From NCBI GenBank assembly GCA_963931185.1, contig OZ006981.1:295910-359909 (forward strand): a stretch of 64,000 nt of DNA. Reading direction: 5' to 3'. Made by a program: the position numbers and the translations under genes. Positions 12,409-28,030 of the stretch are shown here, one piece after another. A model generated the notes under the pieces. It was not told the origin of the DNA, searched no databases, and worked only from the letters and a program-made list of their open reading frames with translations. Source of the DNA: an uncultured Bacilli bacterium (GTDB lineage: Bacteria > Bacillota_I > Bacilli_A > RF39 > UBA660). How positions within the stretch are numbered: position 1 is the stretch's first letter; every line of letters begins with the position of its first letter.

Positions 12409-12978
12409 TTAATATACATTTACATTATCCCTGTCAAGTTTACTTTTTATACTTTCTATGTCTAAAATTAAATCTCTTTCAACTTCAGAACCTTTCACTA
12501 CCAAATCATATCGATCAGAAGTATCTAAATCAGTCAATTTACTTAAATTAATTCCTCGATTATATGCTGCAGAATCAATATCAGTATTTTCACATTTCTC
12601 ATCTGTACATGACACTAAATGTGCATAATATACATACTCATATTCAGCTGTTCCCACAATCTGCTCTTTAGTTATAGCCACAAAAGACTTTTCTTTAGAA
12701 TAATATGTATCATATGGAGAACTGCTCAACTCAAAGTTATCAAGGCTTTCCATTTTTATAACAACAACACTATACTGATCAGGATAGTTAATGGAAGTAT
12801 CACTTCTTATTTTATATTCTGCAGAACTAATCATTTGCTTTGCGTCTTCCAAAAAAGTCTCTTTTTTATTTTTATCCAAAGTTGATATAATATTTGGAAT
12901 TGCTATTGTCATAATTACTCCCAAAATCACTATAACAGCTAAAAGTTCAATTAATGTAAATCCCTTATCTTTTAACAT
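12409..12978 (-). CDS. Prepilin-type pilin/pseudopilin (second tandem copy)
   Basis: KGFTLIELLAVIVILGVI motif; start MLKDKGF with a GGTGA RBS. Confidence 0.7.
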   Translation of the reverse strand: MLKDKGFTLIELLAVIVILGVIMTIAIPNIISTLDKNKKETFLEDAKQMISSAEYKIRSDTSINYPDQYSVVVIKMESLDNFELSSSPYDTYYSKEKSFVAITKEQIVGTAEYEYVYYAHLVSCTDEKCENTDIDSAAYNRGINLSKLTDLDTSDRYDLVVKGSEVERDLILDIESIKSKLDRDNVNVY

Positions 12979-13089
12979 AACATAATCACCATACCTTAAC
13001 ATGATTATAATATTTTAAAAAAAACTTTTCAAGAAAAATATTTTTTCAAATATATGGTTTTAAACAAAAAAAAACTCATCAAAATGAGT

Positions 13090-16211: not shown

Positions 16212-16260
16212 TGGTGGGGCGTTAGGGATTCGAACCCTAGACCCACTGATTAAGAGTCAG
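16212..16260 (-). other. 3' half of the disrupted host tRNA-Lys(CUU) gene, including the 13-bp att core (16248-16260)
   Basis: Minus strand reads CTGACTCTTAATCAGTGGGTCTAGGGTTCGAATCCCTAACGCCCCACCA. This is a T-arm, acceptor 3' strand and CCA that pair perfectly with the 5' half at 26172-26198. Confidence 0.8.
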
Positions 16261-16404
16261 AGGGCTTACTTCCCTTTTTCTAAGGCTCCACCATATTGTC
16301 AAAAAACTTAAGCAACTTATTTTTCCCTTATTTTACGGGGCTTTGCTTGGTTTGTTGTATTTACTATAGCATTTTTTAGTTGGCTCTACAATAGCCTTTT
16401 TTTT

Positions 16405-16432
16405 GTTGTGGGTGCCGAAAAGGTGCCGAAAT
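16405..16432. promoter_or_regulatory. Candidate integrase arm-type sites, left end (GGTGCCGAA x2)
   Basis: GTGGGTGCCGAAAAGGTGCCGAAATG direct repeats between the att core and the int stop. The same 9-mer family recurs at the right end. Confidence 0.45.
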
Positions 16433-16446
16433 GTTAAAATCGTGTC

Positions 16447-17562
16447 TTAATTGATACTCAATGCACCATTTAACATGTTAGCAACCTCGGTTCTATTTGC
16501 TTGGAAAATGTGAGAGTAAATGCCTGTTGTTACTGCCATAGAAGAATGACCCATTCTTTCTTGTATCAATTTTGTGTGAACACCTAGTGCAATTTGTAAA
16601 CTTGCTGAACTATGTCTCAATGAGTGAAAGTTCATTTTTGGTAGTCCATATTTAACTGCTACTTTTTGAAATATTTTGCCACAAGTGGTTGGATACATAG
16701 GTTTCCCGTCTTTTGCTAGGAACAATTTATTGTTTGCTTTCCAATTATTTGATAAAGATAACTCCTCTTTGTAGGCTTTTAATATCTCAATAGTTGTATC
16801 GGTTAATACCATTTTTCTTGTTGATGTATCGTTCTTTGTTGCCTTTTCTACAATTTCGCCTTTAATAACATCTAGCGATTTATTGATAGTTAATACTTTG
16901 GTATCAAAATCAATATCGTTCCAAGTTAATGCCAAAATCTCACTTCTTCTTGCTCCCGAGTCTAGTGCTAGAACAATAAGTGCTTGATATTTTAGACACT
17001 CATTTTTTAACCCATTTAATAATGTATGTATTTGCTCTAGGTCGTAACACTCGGCAAGATGTTTTTCTTTTTTGGGTCTAGGTATATCAATATTAGGGTT
17101 AGTTTCAAGTAGTTTCCATTTAACGGCTTGTGTAAACATTAAATTGATTAAGTTGTAATAATGTAATAAAGTGTTATTTGTTACAACTTTTTTTCTTGTG
17201 CCATTTTTTAATTTTTTATATAGTTCCATTAAAGTAAAAGTTTCAATATCTTTTAGTTGCCAATTACCAATATAGCCATTGATTTTTTCTAACATTGACT
17301 TGTATCCGTCCAAAGTTTTTACACCGACATTTTCTTCACAATAGTTACGAATAAAGAAGTTCCCAAAATCTTCAAAGGTCATATTTTTGCTATCAACAAC
17401 AAAGCCACCTTTTGCATATTGTTGCTTGATTTCAAACTCTCTTGTTTCGGCTTGTTTTTTCGTTCCCTCAAAAATCTCCGTTTTTCTCTTTCTTTTTCCG
17501 TCTATATTGTAGCCAATTTCTGCTATTATTTTATATTTATTTTTTGATAGTTGTTTTATCAT
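16447..17562 (-). CDS. int: Site-specific tyrosine recombinase (phage/ICE-type integrase)
   Basis: N-terminal arm-binding-like domain (KNKYKIIAEIGYNIDGKRKRK). C-terminal catalytic HSLRHSSAS...HSSMAVTTGIYSHI (R, HxxR, Y). GGAGG RBS before MIKQLSK. Confidence 0.85.
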   Translation of the reverse strand: MIKQLSKNKYKIIAEIGYNIDGKRKRKTEIFEGTKKQAETREFEIKQQYAKGGFVVDSKNMTFEDFGNFFIRNYCEENVGVKTLDGYKSMLEKINGYIGNWQLKDIETFTLMELYKKLKNGTRKKVVTNNTLLHYYNLINLMFTQAVKWKLLETNPNIDIPRPKKEKHLAECYDLEQIHTLLNGLKNECLKYQALIVLALDSGARRSEILALTWNDIDFDTKVLTINKSLDVIKGEIVEKATKNDTSTRKMVLTDTTIEILKAYKEELSLSNNWKANNKLFLAKDGKPMYPTTCGKIFQKVAVKYGLPKMNFHSLRHSSASLQIALGVHTKLIQERMGHSSMAVTTGIYSHIFQANRTEVANMLNGALSIN

Positions 17563-17635
17563 TTTTCGTTCCTCCAATCATTTGATAAAACAATCTCTAT
17601 CTACTTATAATTATACCATATTTTCCTTGTTTTTC

Positions 17636-17833
17636 CTAGTAAAATAGAGATGTTTTGCTTTCTTTTTCTTGTAATTTTTCTACCCATGTATTGATACTTT
17701 TTAAATCAAACATAATACGATTTCCTATTCTAAAGTGTGGTATTTTTTTCTCTCTTACCAACTTTCTAATTTCCGATATAGATATTTTTAAATAGTTTGA
17801 TAAATCTTTTAAATTACATATTTCTTTTGTCAT
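17636..17833 (-). CDS. xis: Excisionase/Xis-family small HTH DNA-binding protein
   Basis: 65 aa; ISISEIRKLVREKKIPHFRIGNRIMF matches the excisionase-family HTH; GGAGG RBS; directly upstream of int. Confidence 0.7.
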   Translation of the reverse strand: MTKEICNLKDLSNYLKISISEIRKLVREKKIPHFRIGNRIMFDLKSINTWVEKLQEKESKTSLFY

Positions 17834-17939
17834 TTGTTAAACCTCCAATTTTTTGATTTTCCGTTCGAACAATTAGAGTTTACCTTTAACAAAAGCCTCA
17901 AATCTCGTACAAGTTTTTTGATTAAGTGTTCCATTTTGA

Positions 17940-18230
17940 AAACTAAAAAAAGCCCGTAATATAAGGGCTAGAGAGATTTACTTGTCCGATTTTTCGAGTA
18001 ATAAGTTTTAATTTTGTTATGATATTTTTTGATAAGTTGTGATACTTTGTGATAGTTTATGATACTTTTTTCGCCCAACACCCTATATATATAAATAAGG
18101 AAAAAATACGGGGCTAGCAAAATCAAAAAAAATGAAAATATTTTATACTTATTTTTGACCTTTTAACTCGAAAAATCGGTATTAAAAAACAAGAAAAAGC
18201 CCGTAAGTAAAGGGTTTTCATACTTTCAAA
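17940..18230. promoter_or_regulatory. Highly structured ORF-free control region (hairpins, inverted repeats, iterons)
   Basis: AAGCCCGTAA(T/G)ATAAGGG hairpins at 17947-17972 and 18198-18222. Inverted repeat GTCCGATTTTTCGAGT (17984-17999) / ACTCGAAAAATCGG (18164-18177). GTGATACTTT-type iterons at 18019-18066. Confidence 0.5.
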
Positions 18231-18375
18231 AAAGAACACTTTTACTTGTTTTATGATACTTTCTTTTAGGTATTTTCTTGGTAAGATGTAATCACAAACG
18301 AAGCAAGTCGACTTAAAAGTTTGTAAAAAAAATGTTAGAATAGTGGTAACCCCACAAATGAAAGGAATGATTAAA

Positions 18376-18906: not shown

Positions 18907-18927
18907 TAAGGCATGGAGGCTTTAATT

Positions 18928-20076
18928 ATGGGAAAAAGACACAATACCTTATCGGACGATATTTTTCGCAATAGCAAGTATATAAACACTTTAGAACAAG
19001 CACTTGAAATTGACGACTTTAGAAAAGAATACAAAGAACAATATGACATTATGCTTGAAGTATATAAAATGCTTATCACAATAAACAATATAATATTCGC
19101 TGATAGTAATAAATCTATCAATGATAAAATATACGAAATGGAACTTGAGTTTGAAAAAATTGTTGGGGAACAAGTTGACGAAGAAAGCGACGAAAAAAGA
19201 AAACATAAATATAGTGTAAGAACTTTAAAAGGCTTGATAGATAGTAATACGAGATACTTATTCAATAAGTTTGTTGAGTGGTATGATTATTTAATGAACT
19301 TTAACAAATTAGATATGGTTAAGCAAGAGGTCGAAGAAGAAATGAAAAGACTTGAAAGCATTGACTTTGACAAAGTTGTTAAAGGTGGTCTACTTTATGA
19401 GAAAAATAAAAATAGCAACTATAAAATCTATACAAGCAAACTAGATTATCTATTCCTTAACAATAAAGATGTATGGAAAGAATACAAGCAAGACTTTTAC
19501 GACACATACGGAATCCAACTAACGGATCGAGAGAAAAACGATATTTACTTTGTATTTAAGTTAATTGCTTATGCAAATAATGGTATTGTAAAATTACTAT
19601 TTCAAGACGAAATAAAAGACTTTGAATTAACCGAAAAAGACAATGCCGAAGATTATTTCAAAGCCTATCTAACATCTTTAAATATAGATATAAAAGATAA
19701 TAGAAAGTTTATGAGTAAAGCCGACATCTTTTTAAATGAGTTGCTGATAACTAACAATGTTATTATAGAACAATTAGAAAATGACACTAAAAACGAGCAT
19801 ATCATTGATATATCACATATTGAGGTTGAGCCTTTTGTTGCAAATTATGACTTATACTTTTTCTATGTAAATATGGAAAAGATAACTACGGGCTTATATG
19901 AGTTTACTATCAAAACTGATGTTATAGTTAAGATTATCAATGACTTAAAAGAAATCTATAATCTTATGTATGACAATGTGCCTACTATCACGGACGAAAA
20001 ACAAGTGCAAGAGGCTTTTTCTAAAATACAAAATATAATTGATAGAAATAAGAAAATGTTTGAGAGGTTGAGTTAA
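18928..20076 (+). CDS. Island cargo protein B, unknown function
   Basis: 382 aa from MGKRHNT with a GGAGG RBS; no nucleotide-binding or nuclease motif recognised; stop overlaps the gene C start (TAATG). Confidence 0.6.
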   Translation: MGKRHNTLSDDIFRNSKYINTLEQALEIDDFRKEYKEQYDIMLEVYKMLITINNIIFADSNKSINDKIYEMELEFEKIVGEQVDEESDEKRKHKYSVRTLKGLIDSNTRYLFNKFVEWYDYLMNFNKLDMVKQEVEEEMKRLESIDFDKVVKGGLLYEKNKNSNYKIYTSKLDYLFLNNKDVWKEYKQDFYDTYGIQLTDREKNDIYFVFKLIAYANNGIVKLLFQDEIKDFELTEKDNAEDYFKAYLTSLNIDIKDNRKFMSKADIFLNELLITNNVIIEQLENDTKNEHIIDISHIEVEPFVANYDLYFFYVNMEKITTGLYEFTIKTDVIVKIINDLKEIYNLMYDNVPTITDEKQVQEAFSKIQNIIDRNKKMFERLS

Positions 20077-20795
20077 TGAAATCAATAAATGTTGTTAAGA
20101 TGTTAGAGGAAGAAGAAAAAACAAAGGCAAAAGAACGAAAAAGCACGGATGCTGAAACACTATTAAAAGATATAATATGGAATTGTATTGATAACTTTAT
20201 AATGCCCTATGTGAAATCAAAAATTGAAATAACGGAACACGAGCAAGTCGTATATGAAGATAACCTTTTTAATTTATTAGTTAAGCATAATGACTTTACG
20301 GAAGAAGATAGTATCGCCTTTGACGAGGAAGAAAGAAACTTTTTAAATACAAGCAATAGGAAAGTTAAAGTTGATATGGGCAAACGATATGCTGAAACAA
20401 TTATAAGAACACATACACTTGACGAAAAAGTGGAAGAATATTATATCAAGTATACAAAGCCTATGCTTAAGGAATTACAAAAACAAAATGTTATTATCTA
20501 TGATACTGAAGCATTAGATAATAAAACAAAAAGTGCTACCACTAAAATAGATAAATTAGTAAAAAAGATTATTACTGATAAAGCCAAAGAAAGCAAGATG
20601 TATTCGCTTTTTAAAAAAATATTCGGTAATGAGTTTATAGAAAAAAATGATGTTATCTTTAGTGATAACAAAGAACAAAAGGAAAAGTTTTGTAATTGTA
20701 TCAAGACTTATATAGAAAATAACTACGATAATATTGACTATAAAGCCATTGATAACATTGACTTTGCTGATATGAACGAGTTTAAACTCGATTAA
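20076..20795 (+). CDS. Island cargo protein C, unknown function
   Basis: 239 aa; translationally coupled to B; followed by a strong terminator. Confidence 0.6.
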   Translation: MKSINVVKMLEEEEKTKAKERKSTDAETLLKDIIWNCIDNFIMPYVKSKIEITEHEQVVYEDNLFNLLVKHNDFTEEDSIAFDEEERNFLNTSNRKVKVDMGKRYAETIIRTHTLDEKVEEYYIKYTKPMLKELQKQNVIIYDTEALDNKTKSATTKIDKLVKKIITDKAKESKMYSLFKKIFGNEFIEKNDVIFSDNKEQKEKFCNCIKTYIENNYDNIDYKAIDNIDFADMNEFKLD

Positions 20796-20924: not shown

Positions 20925-21176
20925 TTACTTGTTTTCGTCTATGGGAGCAAATAACTCTCTTATATCTATACCTAAAATCTTTGCTAAATGGTAAAGACTA
21001 CCTACTGAAATAGTTTGAAATACTTTGTCGCTTTCGAGGTTGCCAATAAAACTTAAAGCATAGTTGCTTGCCTCGGCTAATCGTTCTTGGGTAAAGCCTT
21101 TGTCTTTTCGTAATTTTTTCAAGTTTTGACCTATCACATAGTAGATATAATTTTCATCGTTTTTGTTGTCATTCAT
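20925..21176 (-). CDS. XRE-family (Cro/CI-type) HTH transcriptional regulator
   Basis: LKKLRKDKGFTQERLAEASNYALSFIGNLESDK HTH; divergent from the 21279 operon. Confidence 0.75.
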   Translation of the reverse strand: MNDNKNDENYIYYVIGQNLKKLRKDKGFTQERLAEASNYALSFIGNLESDKVFQTISVGSLYHLAKILGIDIRELFAPIDENK

Positions 21177-23868: not shown

Positions 23869-24018
23869 TGTCAATAGGTTTGGTGCTGGAATATATGGGC
23901 TTGGTGCAACTTTAAGCACTACCATAGCAATTATACTATGCTTGCACTAACTCTTGTTAAATGCCTTATATTGCCTTAATATGAGGTGTTTTTTTATGCC
24001 TCGATCCGAGTGCTTGCT

Positions 24019-24110
24019 ACCCTATAAATTGATATAAGTATCTTTTGTATATTTTTGGTTGTTCTTGTTTCCTCTTAAGTAAGGGTAAGTGTTAGTGGCT
24101 ACCCTATAAG
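24019..24110. repeat. 12-bp direct repeat GCTACCCTATAA (x2, 80 bp apart) in an ORF-free, GC-richer region
   Basis: Copies at 24019-24030 and 24099-24110, upstream of the second Xis-like gene. Confidence 0.5.
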
Positions 24111-24129: not shown

Positions 24130-24294
24130 ATGAATTATTACACTACAAAGGAAATAAGCGAGATTTTAGGACTATCAATTAAGACTATTCAAAAGTTAAT
24201 TAGAACAAGACAACTAAAAGCATTTAAAATTGGTAATCGTTTCATAGTCGAAGAAAGCACACTAAAAGACTACATCAATGCAAGACAAGTATAG
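24130..24294 (+). CDS. Second excisionase/MerR-like small HTH protein
   Basis: 54 aa, MNYYTTKEISEILGLSIKTIQKLIRTRQLKAFKIGNRFIVEE; GGGAGG RBS; below the ORF-track size cutoff. Confidence 0.55.
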   Translation: MNYYTTKEISEILGLSIKTIQKLIRTRQLKAFKIGNRFIVEESTLKDYINARQV

Positions 24295-24771: not shown

Positions 24772-24931
24772 TTAGATAATAGATAGATAAACACATAATC
24801 TTTGTTAGTTTGCCGTCTAATTAAAAGAAAAAACGGCTTTTCAATATAAGCCATTTTTGTTCAATTTTACGAATAATTATATGCCACCATTGACTTATGC
24901 CCTTTTTGGCACATATTTAGGAGGTTTGAAA

Positions 24932-25450
24932 ATGAAAAAACAAGCAATAGGTTTTATCGTTGACGAACACGGAGTTGTTAATAAAGAGATATACATAGGC
25001 GACCGAGTTCGTATTATACGAGAAAGCCAAAGACAACATTTACAAGATTTTAAAAAGACAAATAAAAGCAAAACATATTGTAAGGTATTTTGTAAGGCAA
25101 GCGATATATTGGCAAGTCTTAATTTAACAGCAAGTGAATATAAACTAATTTTTGCTATGCTCGGTCATATCGGTTTTGCCGAGTTTAGTGGCTACCTTAT
25201 AAAAGTTCAATGCAATATGTTTTGTGGTTACTTAAACGGCGAGGAATTAAAAAGTATTGCTAATATGCAAGATAGGACATTTTGGCGAGCCATTGATAGT
25301 TTAGTAAAAAAAGAGATTATCGCCATTGAGAAAGTTGGACGAGAAAATCATTTTTTGGTTAATCCGTTTATATTTATGAAAAATGACGAAATAACTCGTA
25401 CCTTATTCAATTTGTTTTGTGATACAAAGTTCAATTATTTAAACGAATAA
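24932..25450 (+). CDS. Putative winged-helix replication/regulatory protein (RepL-like?)
   Basis: AGGAGG RBS 7 nt before MKKQAIGF; 172 aa. Family assignment is uncertain. Confidence 0.4.
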   Translation: MKKQAIGFIVDEHGVVNKEIYIGDRVRIIRESQRQHLQDFKKTNKSKTYCKVFCKASDILASLNLTASEYKLIFAMLGHIGFAEFSGYLIKVQCNMFCGYLNGEELKSIANMQDRTFWRAIDSLVKKEIIAIEKVGRENHFLVNPFIFMKNDEITRTLFNLFCDTKFNYLNE

Positions 25451-25837: not shown

Positions 25838-25872
25838 AAAAGGTGCCGAACGGGTGCCGTAAAAGGTGCCGT
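25838..25872. promoter_or_regulatory. Candidate integrase arm-type sites, right end (GGTGCCGAA/GGTGCCGTA/GGTGCCGTC)
   Basis: AAAAGGTGCCGAACGGGTGCCGTAAAAGGTGCCGTC: three copies of the 9-mer family seen at 16408-16432, about 290 bp from the right att core. Confidence 0.45.
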
Positions 25873-25877
25873 CTTAT

Positions 25878-25913
25878 GATAATTTGTGATACTTTATGAT
25901 ACTTTTGTAATTT
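25878..25913. repeat. TGATA(A/C)TTT iterons (x3)
   Basis: TTATGATAATTTGTGATACTTTATGATACTTTTG; the same iteron family as 18019-18066 and 18248-18258. Confidence 0.5.
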
Positions 25914-26052: not shown

Positions 26053-26128
26053 TGGTGGATTGTTAGGGATTCGAACCCTAGACCCATCGATTAAGAGTCG
26101 ATTGCTCTACCAACTGAGCTAACAATCC
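26053..26128 (-). tRNA. tRNA-Lys(CUU), element-borne intact copy
   Basis: GGATTGTTAGCTCAGTTGGTAGAGCAATCGACTCTTAATCGATGGGTCTAGGGTTCGAATCCCTAACAATCCACCA. Perfect acceptor stem GGATTGT/ACAATCC, anticodon loop CTCTTAA, CCA encoded. Confidence 0.85.
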
Positions 26129-26158: not shown

Positions 26159-26198
26159 GATTAAGAGTCAGTTGCTCTACCAACTGAGCTAACGCCCC
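26159..26198 (-). other. 5' half of the disrupted host tRNA-Lys(CUU) gene, including the att core copy (26159-26171)
   Basis: Minus strand reads GGGGCGTTAGCTCAGTTGGTAGAGCAACTGACTCTTAATC, then diverges into non-tRNA sequence (GGTTGTTCC...). Confidence 0.8.
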
Positions 26199-26272
26199 AA
26201 AATAAGCTACTAATAAATTATAACATATTTTAAAAAAAAGAAAAGACTTTATTTAAAAAATAATATAAAATC

Positions 26273-26572
26273 TTACAAATTACTATTTATCAATGTTTCT
26301 ATGTCCTTATCTGTATTGATATAATTATTACAAACAGTTTCTAAATATGATATATATTTCTCATTACTAGCAATAATTTCTTCAAATTTATTATACAAAT
26401 TTTTCAAATCATTAATTACTACATCACTTGTTTGAGATAACCAAAAATTTGGTATTTGATTAGCTTTAGTCTTAACATTATCAAACAATGTAGCAATATT
26501 TAAATTTTCTTTTTTTAATTCTGCTATTTTCTCCTTTAATCCATTGAAATCTATTTTTATATTACTTGTCAT
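26273..26572 (-). CDS. Small helical protein, WXG100/Lap-like (uncertain)
   Basis: 99 aa, predicted all-helical; sits next to a WXG100-like gene. Confidence 0.4.
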   Translation of the reverse strand: MTSNIKIDFNGLKEKIAELKKENLNIATLFDNVKTKANQIPNFWLSQTSDVVINDLKNLYNKFEEIIASNEKYISYLETVCNNYINTDKDIETLINSNL

Positions 26573-26873
26573 TATTACTTCTCCATTCTAAATTACTAGA
26601 CAAATCTTTATCAATATTTCCATGTTTAATCGCCATTTCTTTTAATAATTCTCCTTTCTCTATCATAAAAAGTTCTACTTCATTTATGCTCACTAAAAAT
26701 TCATTGTAATTTTCATAAAACATTTCAGAATCAATTCCATTCCATAAAGCTTTAATATCTTCGTTTGTTTTTTTCATATTATCAACAATATTTTTTAAGT
26801 TATTACCTTGCAAATTAAAAAAAGCTCCAATTTTGTATAATTCTTTACAATTTATTTTAAAAATATTTGCCAC
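26562..26873 (-). CDS. WXG100-family (ESAT-6-like) protein
   Basis: 103 aa with a central W-N-G (ALWNGIDSE) at about residue 43 between two predicted helices. Confidence 0.5.
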   Translation of the reverse strand: MANIFKINCKELYKIGAFFNLQGNNLKNIVDNMKKTNEDIKALWNGIDSEMFYENYNEFLVSINEVELFMIEKGELLKEMAIKHGNIDKDLSSNLEWRSNNDK

Positions 26874-28030
26874 TATTCTATTTCCTCCCTATAAAAAATA
26901 TTAGATAAAATTTTTTGATTATTCTCCATATCTAAATTACAGAACATATTAAAAAATTCTTTTGAATTTATAATTGGTAATAAATAGTTTCTTGAATCTC
27001 CATTAAGTATCTGTTCAGAACTAGTATTGTTGTTTTCTGCTACTACATCAATCATAGTTTTCAAAGCAGAAACACTATTAGAATCCAAATTATAAATATT
27101 TTTGCCTTCATATATATTTAATATTTTTTCTCTAAACCTAAATACATTATCACTTGAAATTGAATCTATATAATTTAAAGCATTATTAAAATAATTAAAG
27201 TTATTATAAAGAAGTTGTTGATTTTCTGCATTACTTATCAAAGAATTATAATCAGTATTATTAATATTTGCTATTTTTGTAAAATAAGAATTCAAAAACT
27301 CTATATTTTCTGAATTTATTAAATTTATATTACCAGAAGAATATAGTTTAACCAATATTTGTTTCAAAGCAGAAATATCCATATTAAGTAAACTTTTTTT
27401 CAATTCATCAGTTATATTAATAGAATTTAGTAATTCTTTTTTTACATTCTCTATTTTGATATCATCATTAACTATATCAAAAAAAGTTGAATTTGAAGCA
27501 GATAGAAACTTTGATAAGACAACCGATATTCCTATATAGTCTATCAAATTAAAATCATTAACGCCCATTTGATTAGAATTTATACTAGCATTATAAAAAT
27601 TATTATTAACTGTAGTATTGGCTTTTCTATACGAATTGTTAACTGAATTAGTCGTATAATCATTATTTATAACTTTATTATTAGAATATGACTCATCTAC
27701 CATAATCTGACTATTCTTACTATTATTAATACTATCGTTAATATTATTAATAGTCAAAATTATTGAATTAATAGCTGTAGACAAAGATACACAATAATTT
27801 TCTAGAATACCATATGAAGAAAAATATCTTAAAGCTGAACTGGTAATTCGTTCTGAAGTGAGATTGAGATTATTAACTCTTGACTTCCAATTAGAACATA
27901 AATCTGTTATAGAAGCAGAATTTAAAAATATTTCCTTTTCAGGTAATGAATTTAAATTCATTAAGTCTTCGCCGCTGTATTCAATATTCTCAGTATAATT
28001 CTGAATAGAATTTTCGTTCATAAAAACCAC
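26873..28030 (-). CDS. Asn/Ser-rich low-complexity protein, possible secreted substrate
   Basis: 385 aa with no enzymatic motif; first gene of the three-gene minus-strand unit that includes the WXG100-like genes. Confidence 0.4.
   Translation of the reverse strand: MVFMNENSIQNYTENIEYSGEDLMNLNSLPEKEIFLNSASITDLCSNWKSRVNNLNLTSERITSSALRYFSSYGILENYCVSLSTAINSIILTINNINDSINNSKNSQIMVDESYSNNKVINNDYTTNSVNNSYRKANTTVNNNFYNASINSNQMGVNDFNLIDYIGISVVLSKFLSASNSTFFDIVNDDIKIENVKKELLNSINITDELKKSLLNMDISALKQILVKLYSSGNINLINSENIEFLNSYFTKIANINNTDYNSLISNAENQQLLYNNFNYFNNALNYIDSISSDNVFRFREKILNIYEGKNIYNLDSNSVSALKTMIDVVAENNNTSSEQILNGDSRNYLLPIINSKEFFNMFCNLDMENNQKILSNIFYREEIE

Follow-up and report, generated by a model that had tools for sequence, protein, structure and literature searches.

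Phased TGATA repeats in a tRNA-inserted island of uncultured gut Bacilli are candidate binding sites for its Xis protein

Results and Discussion

A TGATA repeat family in an integrative island

The window analyzed here is a stretch of 64,000 nucleotides from an uncultured Bacilli bacterium (contig OZ006981.1, positions 295,910 to 359,909), and it contains an integrative island of 9.9 kb inserted in the anticodon loop of a tRNA-Lys(CTT) gene, with its integrase (int) and xis genes at the left end. The island carries a family of phased TGATA direct repeats that is real and conserved among related elements. We judge the chance to be somewhat better than even that these units are binding sites for the 65-aa winged-helix Xis of the island, with one set in an attachment (att) arm and another forming a regulatory array.

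Five units on the plus strand start at 18020, 18030, 18040, 18050 and 18060, a spacing of exactly 10 bp, and span 18020-18068 with the sequence TTA-TGATA-TTTTT-TGATA-AGTTG-TGATA-CTTTG-TGATA-GTTTA-TGATA-CTTTT. Three more start at 25877, 25887 and 25897 (span 25877-25905), also at 10-bp spacing, and read TTA-TGATA-ATTTG-TGATA-CTTTA-TGATA-CTTTT. A lone unit, TGATACTTT, is located at 18254-18262. The repeats and their proposed ligand are as follows.

18017-18069, plus strand: five-unit TGATA array, proposed regulatory Xis-binding array in the control region between the divergent xis-int and cargo genes
25874-25906, plus strand: TGATA array of three units in the att arm on the tRNA side (int-distal), proposed to supply architectural Xis sites for excision
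18251-18263, plus strand: single TGATAC unit, ~20 bp upstream of the extended -10 of the candidate promoter P_R (see below), a weakly supported possible extra site
17636-17833, minus strand: xis, 65-aa winged-helix excisionase-family protein (Pfam HTH_17, 5e-11), the proposed TGATA binder

A first-pass annotation of this DNA had reported the repeat at three places, with one set in the xis-to-cargo control region and the other beside the right-end arm sites. The units, strings and placement were correct, although the coordinates were off by 3-6 nt; the true spans of the quoted strings are 18016-18066, 18251-18263 and 25874-25907.

An integrase-based scan of genomes in GTDB identified three close relatives of the island among metagenome-assembled genomes named 'uncultured Bacilli' (L001-L003; loci are given L numbers throughout), and none of the 56 other loci in that scan, which have unrelated integrases, contains a TGATA array or cluster. 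A search with Xis recovered 129 homologs at 60-100% identity, and their contigs together with a metagenome scan gave ~15 distinct island lineages from gut Bacilli metagenomes, inserted in tRNA-Lys, -Arg, -Ser, -Leu and other tRNA genes. When 25 metagenomic loci (~370 kb, both strands) were scanned blind with a position weight matrix and an array was defined as at least two phased high-scoring units, each of the six arrays recovered matched expectation in strand and occupied one of the two anticipated positions. In viral_contigs, three phased TGATA units were present at 51 loci, mostly tandem repeats of giant viruses, none of which encodes homologs of the island proteins; the control region had no match in phage records.

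In the window the motif TGATAMTTT is found 24 times where 7.6 occurrences would be expected, and none of 100 shuffles reaches 24. Same-strand clusters phased at 9-11 bp number exactly two in the window, the sets of five and three units; a single three-unit cluster arose in 15 of 500 dinucleotide shuffles, and neither two clusters nor a run of more than three units arose in any. Both sets share the extended consensus TT-R-TGATA-(C>G/A)-TTT (39 aligned units from seven lineages), the TGATA core is invariant in all 39 units across hosts, and the last three units of the five-unit set are 91% identical to the three-unit set over 33 nt. A distance of 1.8 kb separates the five-unit array from the closer core copy (16248-16260), and 7.8 kb separates it from the array in the att arm. 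The lone unit carries no statistical weight by itself; among relatives it is kept in L001 and L003, reads TGACA in L002 and L117, and is absent in L111 and L120.

One set adjoins the probable integrase arm-type repeats on a single att arm

The three-unit set can be compared with a second class of short repeats that is present at both ends of the island.

16447-17577, minus strand: tyrosine integrase (Int; Phage_integrase 2.6e-26; phrog_1) with an N-terminal arm-binding-type segment
25842-25871, plus strand: three GGTGCCG repeats at 11-12 bp spacing that end 5 nt short of the TGATA triple; they are proposed as the Int arm-type sites of the distal arm
16411-16428, plus strand: two GGTGCCG repeats adjoining the int stop codon; proposed Int arm-type sites of the int-proximal arm

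Two such arm repeats are found at the int-proximal arm in 11 of 11 lineages examined, and none of these 11 has a TGATA array there. The arm repeat is GTGCC in most lineages and GTGGC in exactly two, L117 and L114, which also have the most divergent Int N-terminal segments. Because the change in the repeat tracks the divergence of the Int N-terminus, the GGTGCCG repeats on both arms are probably the arm-type sites of the integrase. The TGATA units are unchanged while the arm repeats vary, which suggests that they belong to a different and more conserved ligand.

In every lineage the distal arm is organized, from inside to outside, as two to three Int arm repeats, two to four TGATA-like units in 10-bp phase, and the tRNA/core, and the orientation of the TGATA units is identical in every related lineage; some lineages have extra arm repeats on the core side of the units. 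In the window the corresponding positions are 25842-25871 for the arm repeats, 25877-25905 for the units and 26159-26171 for the core. Distal arrays of two to four units are present in L003, L111, L117, L120, L122, L130, L136, L145 and L157, arranged as follows.

L003: GGTGCCG x3, TGATA x3
L111: GTGCC x3, TGATA/TGACA, GTGCC x3
L117: TGTGGCC x3, TGATA x2
L120/L145: GTGCC x3, TGATA x2
L122: GTGCCG x2, four units
L130: GTGCCA x2, four units, GTGCCA
L136: GTGCCA x2, TGATA x3, GTGCCA
L157: GTGCCG x2, two units, GTGCCG

As in an array of sites for a recombination directionality factor (RDF), the units are spaced by one helical turn, are confined to a single att arm and lie on the core side of the arm sites. 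RDF sites on one arm and beside the arm sites are the layout in lambda, L5 and 186 (PMC7498355).

Xis is the DNA-binding protein that accompanies the repeats

Xis scores 30.6 bits against TIGR01764 ('excise'; cut-off 28.8), and a profile search of the PDB places Tn916 Xis and Pukovnik Xis on top, albeit weakly (E = 0.11 and 0.68). An AlphaFold2 model of Xis (predicted local distance difference test, pLDDT, 82.8) has Foldseek matches at TM-scores of 0.62-0.78 to RdfS (8dgl), Pukovnik Xis (4j2n), Rpp (6hn7), P2 Cox (4lhf) and BldC (6ama). RdfS, Pukovnik Xis, Cox and BldC form head-to-tail oligomers on DNA (PMC7498355, PMC3936717, PMC5859096, PMC11963761), and the sites of the latter three are direct repeats about one turn apart (PMC7498355, PMC3936717, PMC5859096).

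Other island genes encode an XRE-type helix-turn-helix (HTH) protein (20925-21176), the HTH_17 protein xis2 (24130-24294), and GNAT and zinc-ribbon proteins, and several open reading frames (ORFs) have no family match. A further winged-HTH (wHTH) protein, wh197, is encoded at 24857-25450. The genes o387 and o239 (18913-20795) are core genes of the island family and code for a protein of ~370-387 aa followed by one of 126-255 aa; neither they nor their homologs in relatives match Pfam, PHROG or NCBIfam.

Xis is 63-95% identical across all lineages and is the sole DNA-binding protein kept in all of them, with residues S18, R23-V26, P32, F34 and R35 of the helix and wing invariant. The 54-aa xis2 passes TIGR01764 and has a recognition helix and wing resembling those of Xis (SI..I.KL.R......F.IGNR); outside the group of lineages that carry the five-unit array it is 30-43% identical or missing. 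The XRE protein of relatives falls to 37-54% identity or is missing. Three lineages with clear TGATA arrays share just Xis (and Int) with the window: L136 has no detectable xis2 homolog, an XRE protein at 37% and no wh197; L130 has no xis2 homolog (its other HTH_17 proteins are unrelated), an XRE protein at 52% and a wh197 at 26% identity; and L122 has a xis2-like protein that is 36% identical and lacks the IGNR wing motif, and no wh197.

Across related elements the TGATA sites therefore co-occur with Xis independently of the other DNA-binding genes. The first-pass annotation had offered origin iterons, or operators for Xis, a repressor or Rep proteins, as possible roles. The comparisons favour the Xis option, as the units lie on one att arm, persist as the integrase changes and co-occur with the conserved 65-aa Xis; they speak against Rep and an origin.

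The five-unit array and its control region

The second set lies in a control region with the following features.

18084-18096, plus strand: TATATATATAAAT, candidate -10 region of P_C, a predicted rightward promoter; it begins 24 nt downstream of where the last array unit starts
18279-18287, plus strand: TGGTAAGAT, conserved in every lineage, a candidate for the extended -10 of P_R, the promoter of the rightward operon
17924-17999, no strand assigned: left arm of a 76-bp inverted repeat, with palindrome AGCCC-N9-GGGCT at 17951-17969 and box CCGATTTTTCGAGT at 17986-17999
18166-18241, no strand assigned: right arm of the 76-bp inverted repeat, with box ACTCGAAAAATCGG at 18166-18179 and palindrome AGCCC-N9-GGGTT at 18198-18216

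Arrays of four to six units, matching in position and orientation, occur in L001-L003, L111-L113, L117-L119, L120/L145 and L157. The array is absent from L114, L122, L124, L126, L128, L130 and most metagenomic loci, and so is limited to one subfamily; its presence coincides with an o239 homolog and with versions of xis2 and o387 that are at least 58% and at least 43% identical, respectively. Among close relatives the control region is 87% conserved.

In six of six array lineages a -10-like element (TATATA/TATAAT) follows the start of the last unit at a distance of 23-27 nt; at the P_C position of L157 there is a perfect extended -10, TGTTATAAT. The position of the P_C -10 would place the array units at about -30 to -80 of this predicted promoter. 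A consensus promoter scan gave 54 matches against 57 expected, which is the background level in AT-rich DNA. At P_R, the sequence TGNTAWKAT and a conserved leader are present in every lineage, including those lacking the array. The invariant leader after TGGTAAGAT is GTAATCACAAACGAA (region 18279-18375), and a small hairpin, GTGGTAACCCCAC (18346-18358), stands directly before the ribosome-binding site of the first rightward ORF in all lineages.

The 76-bp inverted repeat encloses the five-unit array. Its arm palindrome, GCCC-N9-GGGC, resembles an intrinsic terminator on the minus strand, and its 14-nt box (CCGATTTTTCGAGT / ACTCGAAAAATCGG, a perfect match) persists even in relatives lacking the array. 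Where the XRE protein is just 52% identical, the palindrome stem changes to ACCC...GGGT; because the stem change accompanies XRE divergence, the palindromes may be repressor operators, with terminators as the alternative. We rejected the idea that the inverted repeats are ends of a miniature inverted-repeat transposable element, as there is no target-site duplication and L126 and L130, which lack the array, already carry one arm. A small RNA extending from the array to the hairpin at 18198-18216 was likewise rejected: Rfam yields tRNAs only, RNAalifold gives -4.2 kcal/mol for essentially just the terminator-like stem, and the two 14-nt boxes show no covariation, with a one-sided change in L003 and L117.

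A different phased repeat, TAAACTA on the island sense strand, is present as five to six units ~10-11 bp apart in L111 (9152-9198) and L003 (8878-8935), between the first small ORF and the o387 homolog. It is unrelated to the TGATA family and is absent from the window.

A model for Xis action at the two sets

The layout of the two sets parallels those of 186 Apl and P2 Cox, and we therefore propose that Xis binds both. One Xis monomer would occupy each unit, head to tail and one helical turn from the next, in a cooperative manner. Three monomers at 25877-25905 would bend the DNA beside the three integrase arm sites (25842-25871), letting integrase bridge arm and core (26159-26171) and the island excise. 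Xis would also bind the five-unit array (18020-18068) between xis-int and the cargo operon, coupling the level of Xis to transcription of the rightward operon; with the array upstream of a predicted rightward promoter, this would constitute feedback of Xis on island transcription.

Several observations weigh against this reading. We infer both Xis binding and its effect on transcription from sequence alone. The array is ~140 bp from the candidate xis-int promoter and ~215 bp from P_R, and P_C, the promoter that it would control, is a prediction. As the whole control region is 87% conserved among close relatives, conservation of the array there is weak evidence by itself, and since the array is present only together with an o239 homolog and a xis2 of at least 58% identity, either xis2 or o239 could be its ligand. 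At the distal arm the units are degenerate (TAATA, TAACA, TATAA) in L114, L124, L126, L128 and L137, lineages with a Xis that is 66-70% identical. Residue-to-base covariation between Xis variants and TGATA or TAATA units gave no clean pattern.

Alternative ligands and functions

There could be two ligands, with Xis at the att-arm units and the five-unit array serving as an operator for xis2, or with both paralogs competing for it, in control of the cargo operon. The array is present exactly where xis2 is at least 58% identical (the window, L003, L117, L111, L120/L145 and L157) and is lacking in lineages with no xis2 or with one of no more than 43% identity, and the similarity of its recognition helix and wing to those of Xis, like its passing TIGR01764, fits such a role. 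However, xis2 is not alone in this correlation, as the array also tracks o239 and the whole of 'module A', and the common extended consensus and the 91% identity of the arrays argue for a single ligand. We consider a separate role for xis2 unlikely.

It is distinctly unlikely that the five-unit array is the core of a ~320-bp palindromic module (17924-18241) acting as an excision-coupled switch of a new kind, or that Xis doubles as the origin-recognition protein of the excised circle. Were there such a module, its 76-bp arms would each contribute a GCCC-N9-GGGC palindrome or terminator-like hairpin and a CCGATTTTTCGAG box, and a filament of Xis might, for instance, make or break a repressor loop or control twin attenuators that face outward.

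The units might also bind a host nucleoid or bending protein, produce intrinsic curvature through phased T-tracts, or represent a cluster of extended -10-like elements. Every unit fits TGnTAnnnT and has a T3-4 tract in helical phase, and host bending proteins of the IHF type occupy att arms elsewhere (PMC7498355). The core, invariant in 39 of 39 units, nevertheless exceeds what curvature would need, no gene lies downstream of the att-arm triple to be served by promoters, and known host-factor sites in att arms are single rather than three to five tandem units. None of these three possibilities explains the att-arm position, and as a group we regard them as very unlikely.

The first-pass annotation had listed origin iterons among its options and noted that a Rep-like protein, here wh197, could bind the repeats. 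In this interpretation the repeats would serve replication or transfer of the excised circle, with wh197 or o387/o239 as ligand and the TA-rich segment unwinding. The phased direct repeats do adjoin the TA-rich tract TATATATATAAAT (18084-18096; the whole region is ~74% A+T), as tandem direct repeats do at origins of the Rep_3 and lambda O types, they are enclosed by inverted repeats, and the presence of the array correlates with o239. The protein has weak matches to Rep3_N, the phage O N-terminus and DnaD_N, but all Rep-type matches are below curated cut-offs (Rep3_N 15.4 bits against 22.4; phage_O_Nterm 14.8 against 45.5), so that no recognisable Rep initiator is present. It has no PHROG match and four database homologs only, none with a Pfam domain, and its model shows a single wHTH at a quality (pLDDT 53) that does not permit a meaningful fold search.

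Nor do the repeats track this protein. In L003 it is 35% identical and the repeats are unchanged; it is absent from L122, L136, L114 and L128, the first three of which keep TGATA units; and in L120/L145, which also keep them, an unrelated HTH_36 protein replaces it. DnaA boxes, allowing up to one mismatch, are absent from both array regions and occur at chance level in the window as a whole. Iterons of the Rep_3 type usually measure ~17-22 bp and are found next to the rep gene or inside it, whereas the island units are 10 bp and lie in an att arm and a putative promoter region; there is no reason for an origin to be situated between integrase arm sites and core in every lineage. An origin function for these repeats is thus very improbable.

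Another candidate iteron, the 18-nt TTAGTGGCTACC(C/T)TATAA, was rejected. Copies at 24092-24109 (upstream of xis2) and 25185-25202 (in the wHTH gene) are identical at 17 of 18 positions, with another at 24010-24027; conservation among relatives is poor, and one copy overlaps a coding motif that is itself conserved, so the repeat may be a coincidence.

Finally, it is extremely improbable that integrase recognises the TGATA units as arm-type sites of a second class. Although they adjoin the GGTGCCG repeats in the att arm, they are missing from the int-proximal arm in 11 of 11 lineages while GTGCC-type repeats are on both arms, they do not follow the changes seen in the Int N-terminal domain and the GTGCC/GTGGC repeats, and no GTGCC repeats are near the five-unit array.

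Comparison with known systems

Close parallels to the proposed action of Xis at two sets of sites come from phages 186 and P2. The Apl protein of coliphage 186 has seven operators between pR and pL and five at attP, which are direct repeats at 10-11 bp spacing with the same sequence at both sets, and at least three adjacent sites are needed for it to bind (PMC7498355). The island has the same elements, a small HTH protein of putative RDF function, an att set beside the Int arm sites and a distant putative switch set, here with three and five units, respectively, at 10 bp. The two differ in that apl opens the lytic operon and the face-to-face promoters on either side of its switch sites are 40-60 bp apart, whereas the island xis adjoins int, the candidate promoters are divergent and the array is upstream of a predicted promoter; the island protein is of the HTH_17 type, from low-GC Bacilli, and its binding is predicted.

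P2 Cox is a winged-helix excisionase that forms filaments on at least six boxes 10-11 bp apart; besides acting at attP, it is a repressor of Pc and, through boxes upstream, an activator of P4 PLL (PMC3936717). The Xis model matches Cox (4lhf) at a TM-score of 0.69, although the two have no detectable sequence similarity; the cox boxes vary in orientation by target and have the consensus TTAAAG/CNCA, whereas the island units all point in the same direction.

Lambda Xis (sites X1-X1.5-X2) and L5/Pukovnik Xis (X1-X4) use three to four tandem sites on one att arm, between the Int arm-type sites and the core, and their head-to-tail binding bends the DNA for excision (cited in PMC7498355). No separate multi-site array in a distant promoter region is known for these RDFs. 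In the model comparison Pukovnik Xis (4j2n) is the second-best fold match of the island Xis. Gp36 of D29, a relative of L5 Xis, regulates genes via direct repeats (PMC12266134).

The best fold match of the Xis model is RdfS of ICEMlSymR7A (8dgl, TM-score 0.72). RdfS binds attP and its own promoter, coupling excision with transcription (PMC11963761); it has an extra N-terminal helix and no recognisable consensus motif, unlike the sharp, phased motif of the island. BldC of Streptomyces, a small HTH_17/MerR-like protein, assembles head to tail on direct repeats that vary in number and are separated by about one turn (PMC5859096). Its Pfam type is that of Xis, and its structure (6ama) is among the fold matches of the Xis model; BldC itself is a chromosomal regulator of development and plays no part in recombination.

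The TGATA repeats are most likely RDF sites that include a second, regulatory array, a well-known design, with no new principle, in an uncharacterised island family. The analysis provides a testable map of the core, Int arm sites, Xis sites and candidate promoters for a family of ~10-kb tRNA-targeting islands that is common in small-genome gut Bacilli known from metagenomes only. If Xis acts as proposed, the excisionase-as-transcription-regulator design of 186, P2 and ICEMlSymR7A would extend to low-GC Firmicute islands, and the unusually sharp 10-bp motif would be a convenient model of cooperative filament binding by HTH_17 proteins.

Integration site and flanking chromosome

The island splits the host tRNA-Lys(CTT) gene into a 3' half (16214-16262) and a 5' half (26160-26200), with a short identity at each junction.

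16248-16260, no strand assigned: left copy of the 13-bp crossover identity GATTAAGAGTCAG, in the anticodon stem-loop of tRNA-Lys, with the host tRNA 3' half to the left
26159-26171, no strand assigned: right copy of the 13-bp crossover identity GATTAAGAGTCAG, with the host tRNA 5' half to the right

The host tRNA is split without being rebuilt, the junction hybrids scoring just 25.6 and 32.2 bits in Rfam, and the island itself bears a complete tRNA-Lys(CTT) (26053-26128; Rfam 73.6 bits) ~30 bp inside the right junction. The island tRNA copy in L003 has compensatory changes in the acceptor stem. The same tRNA replacement layout is present in L003, L122, L124, L126, L130 and L136, and relatives use tRNA-Arg and tRNA-Ser. 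Such a 'disrupt and replace' insertion is unlike the common arrangement, in which attP restores the 3' end of the tRNA. The host, at 26% G+C, looks like an uncultured gut member of the Bacilli with a small genome; its chromosome next to the island (26273-28030 and 12409-13002) encodes small WXG100-like proteins and a prepilin-type protein.

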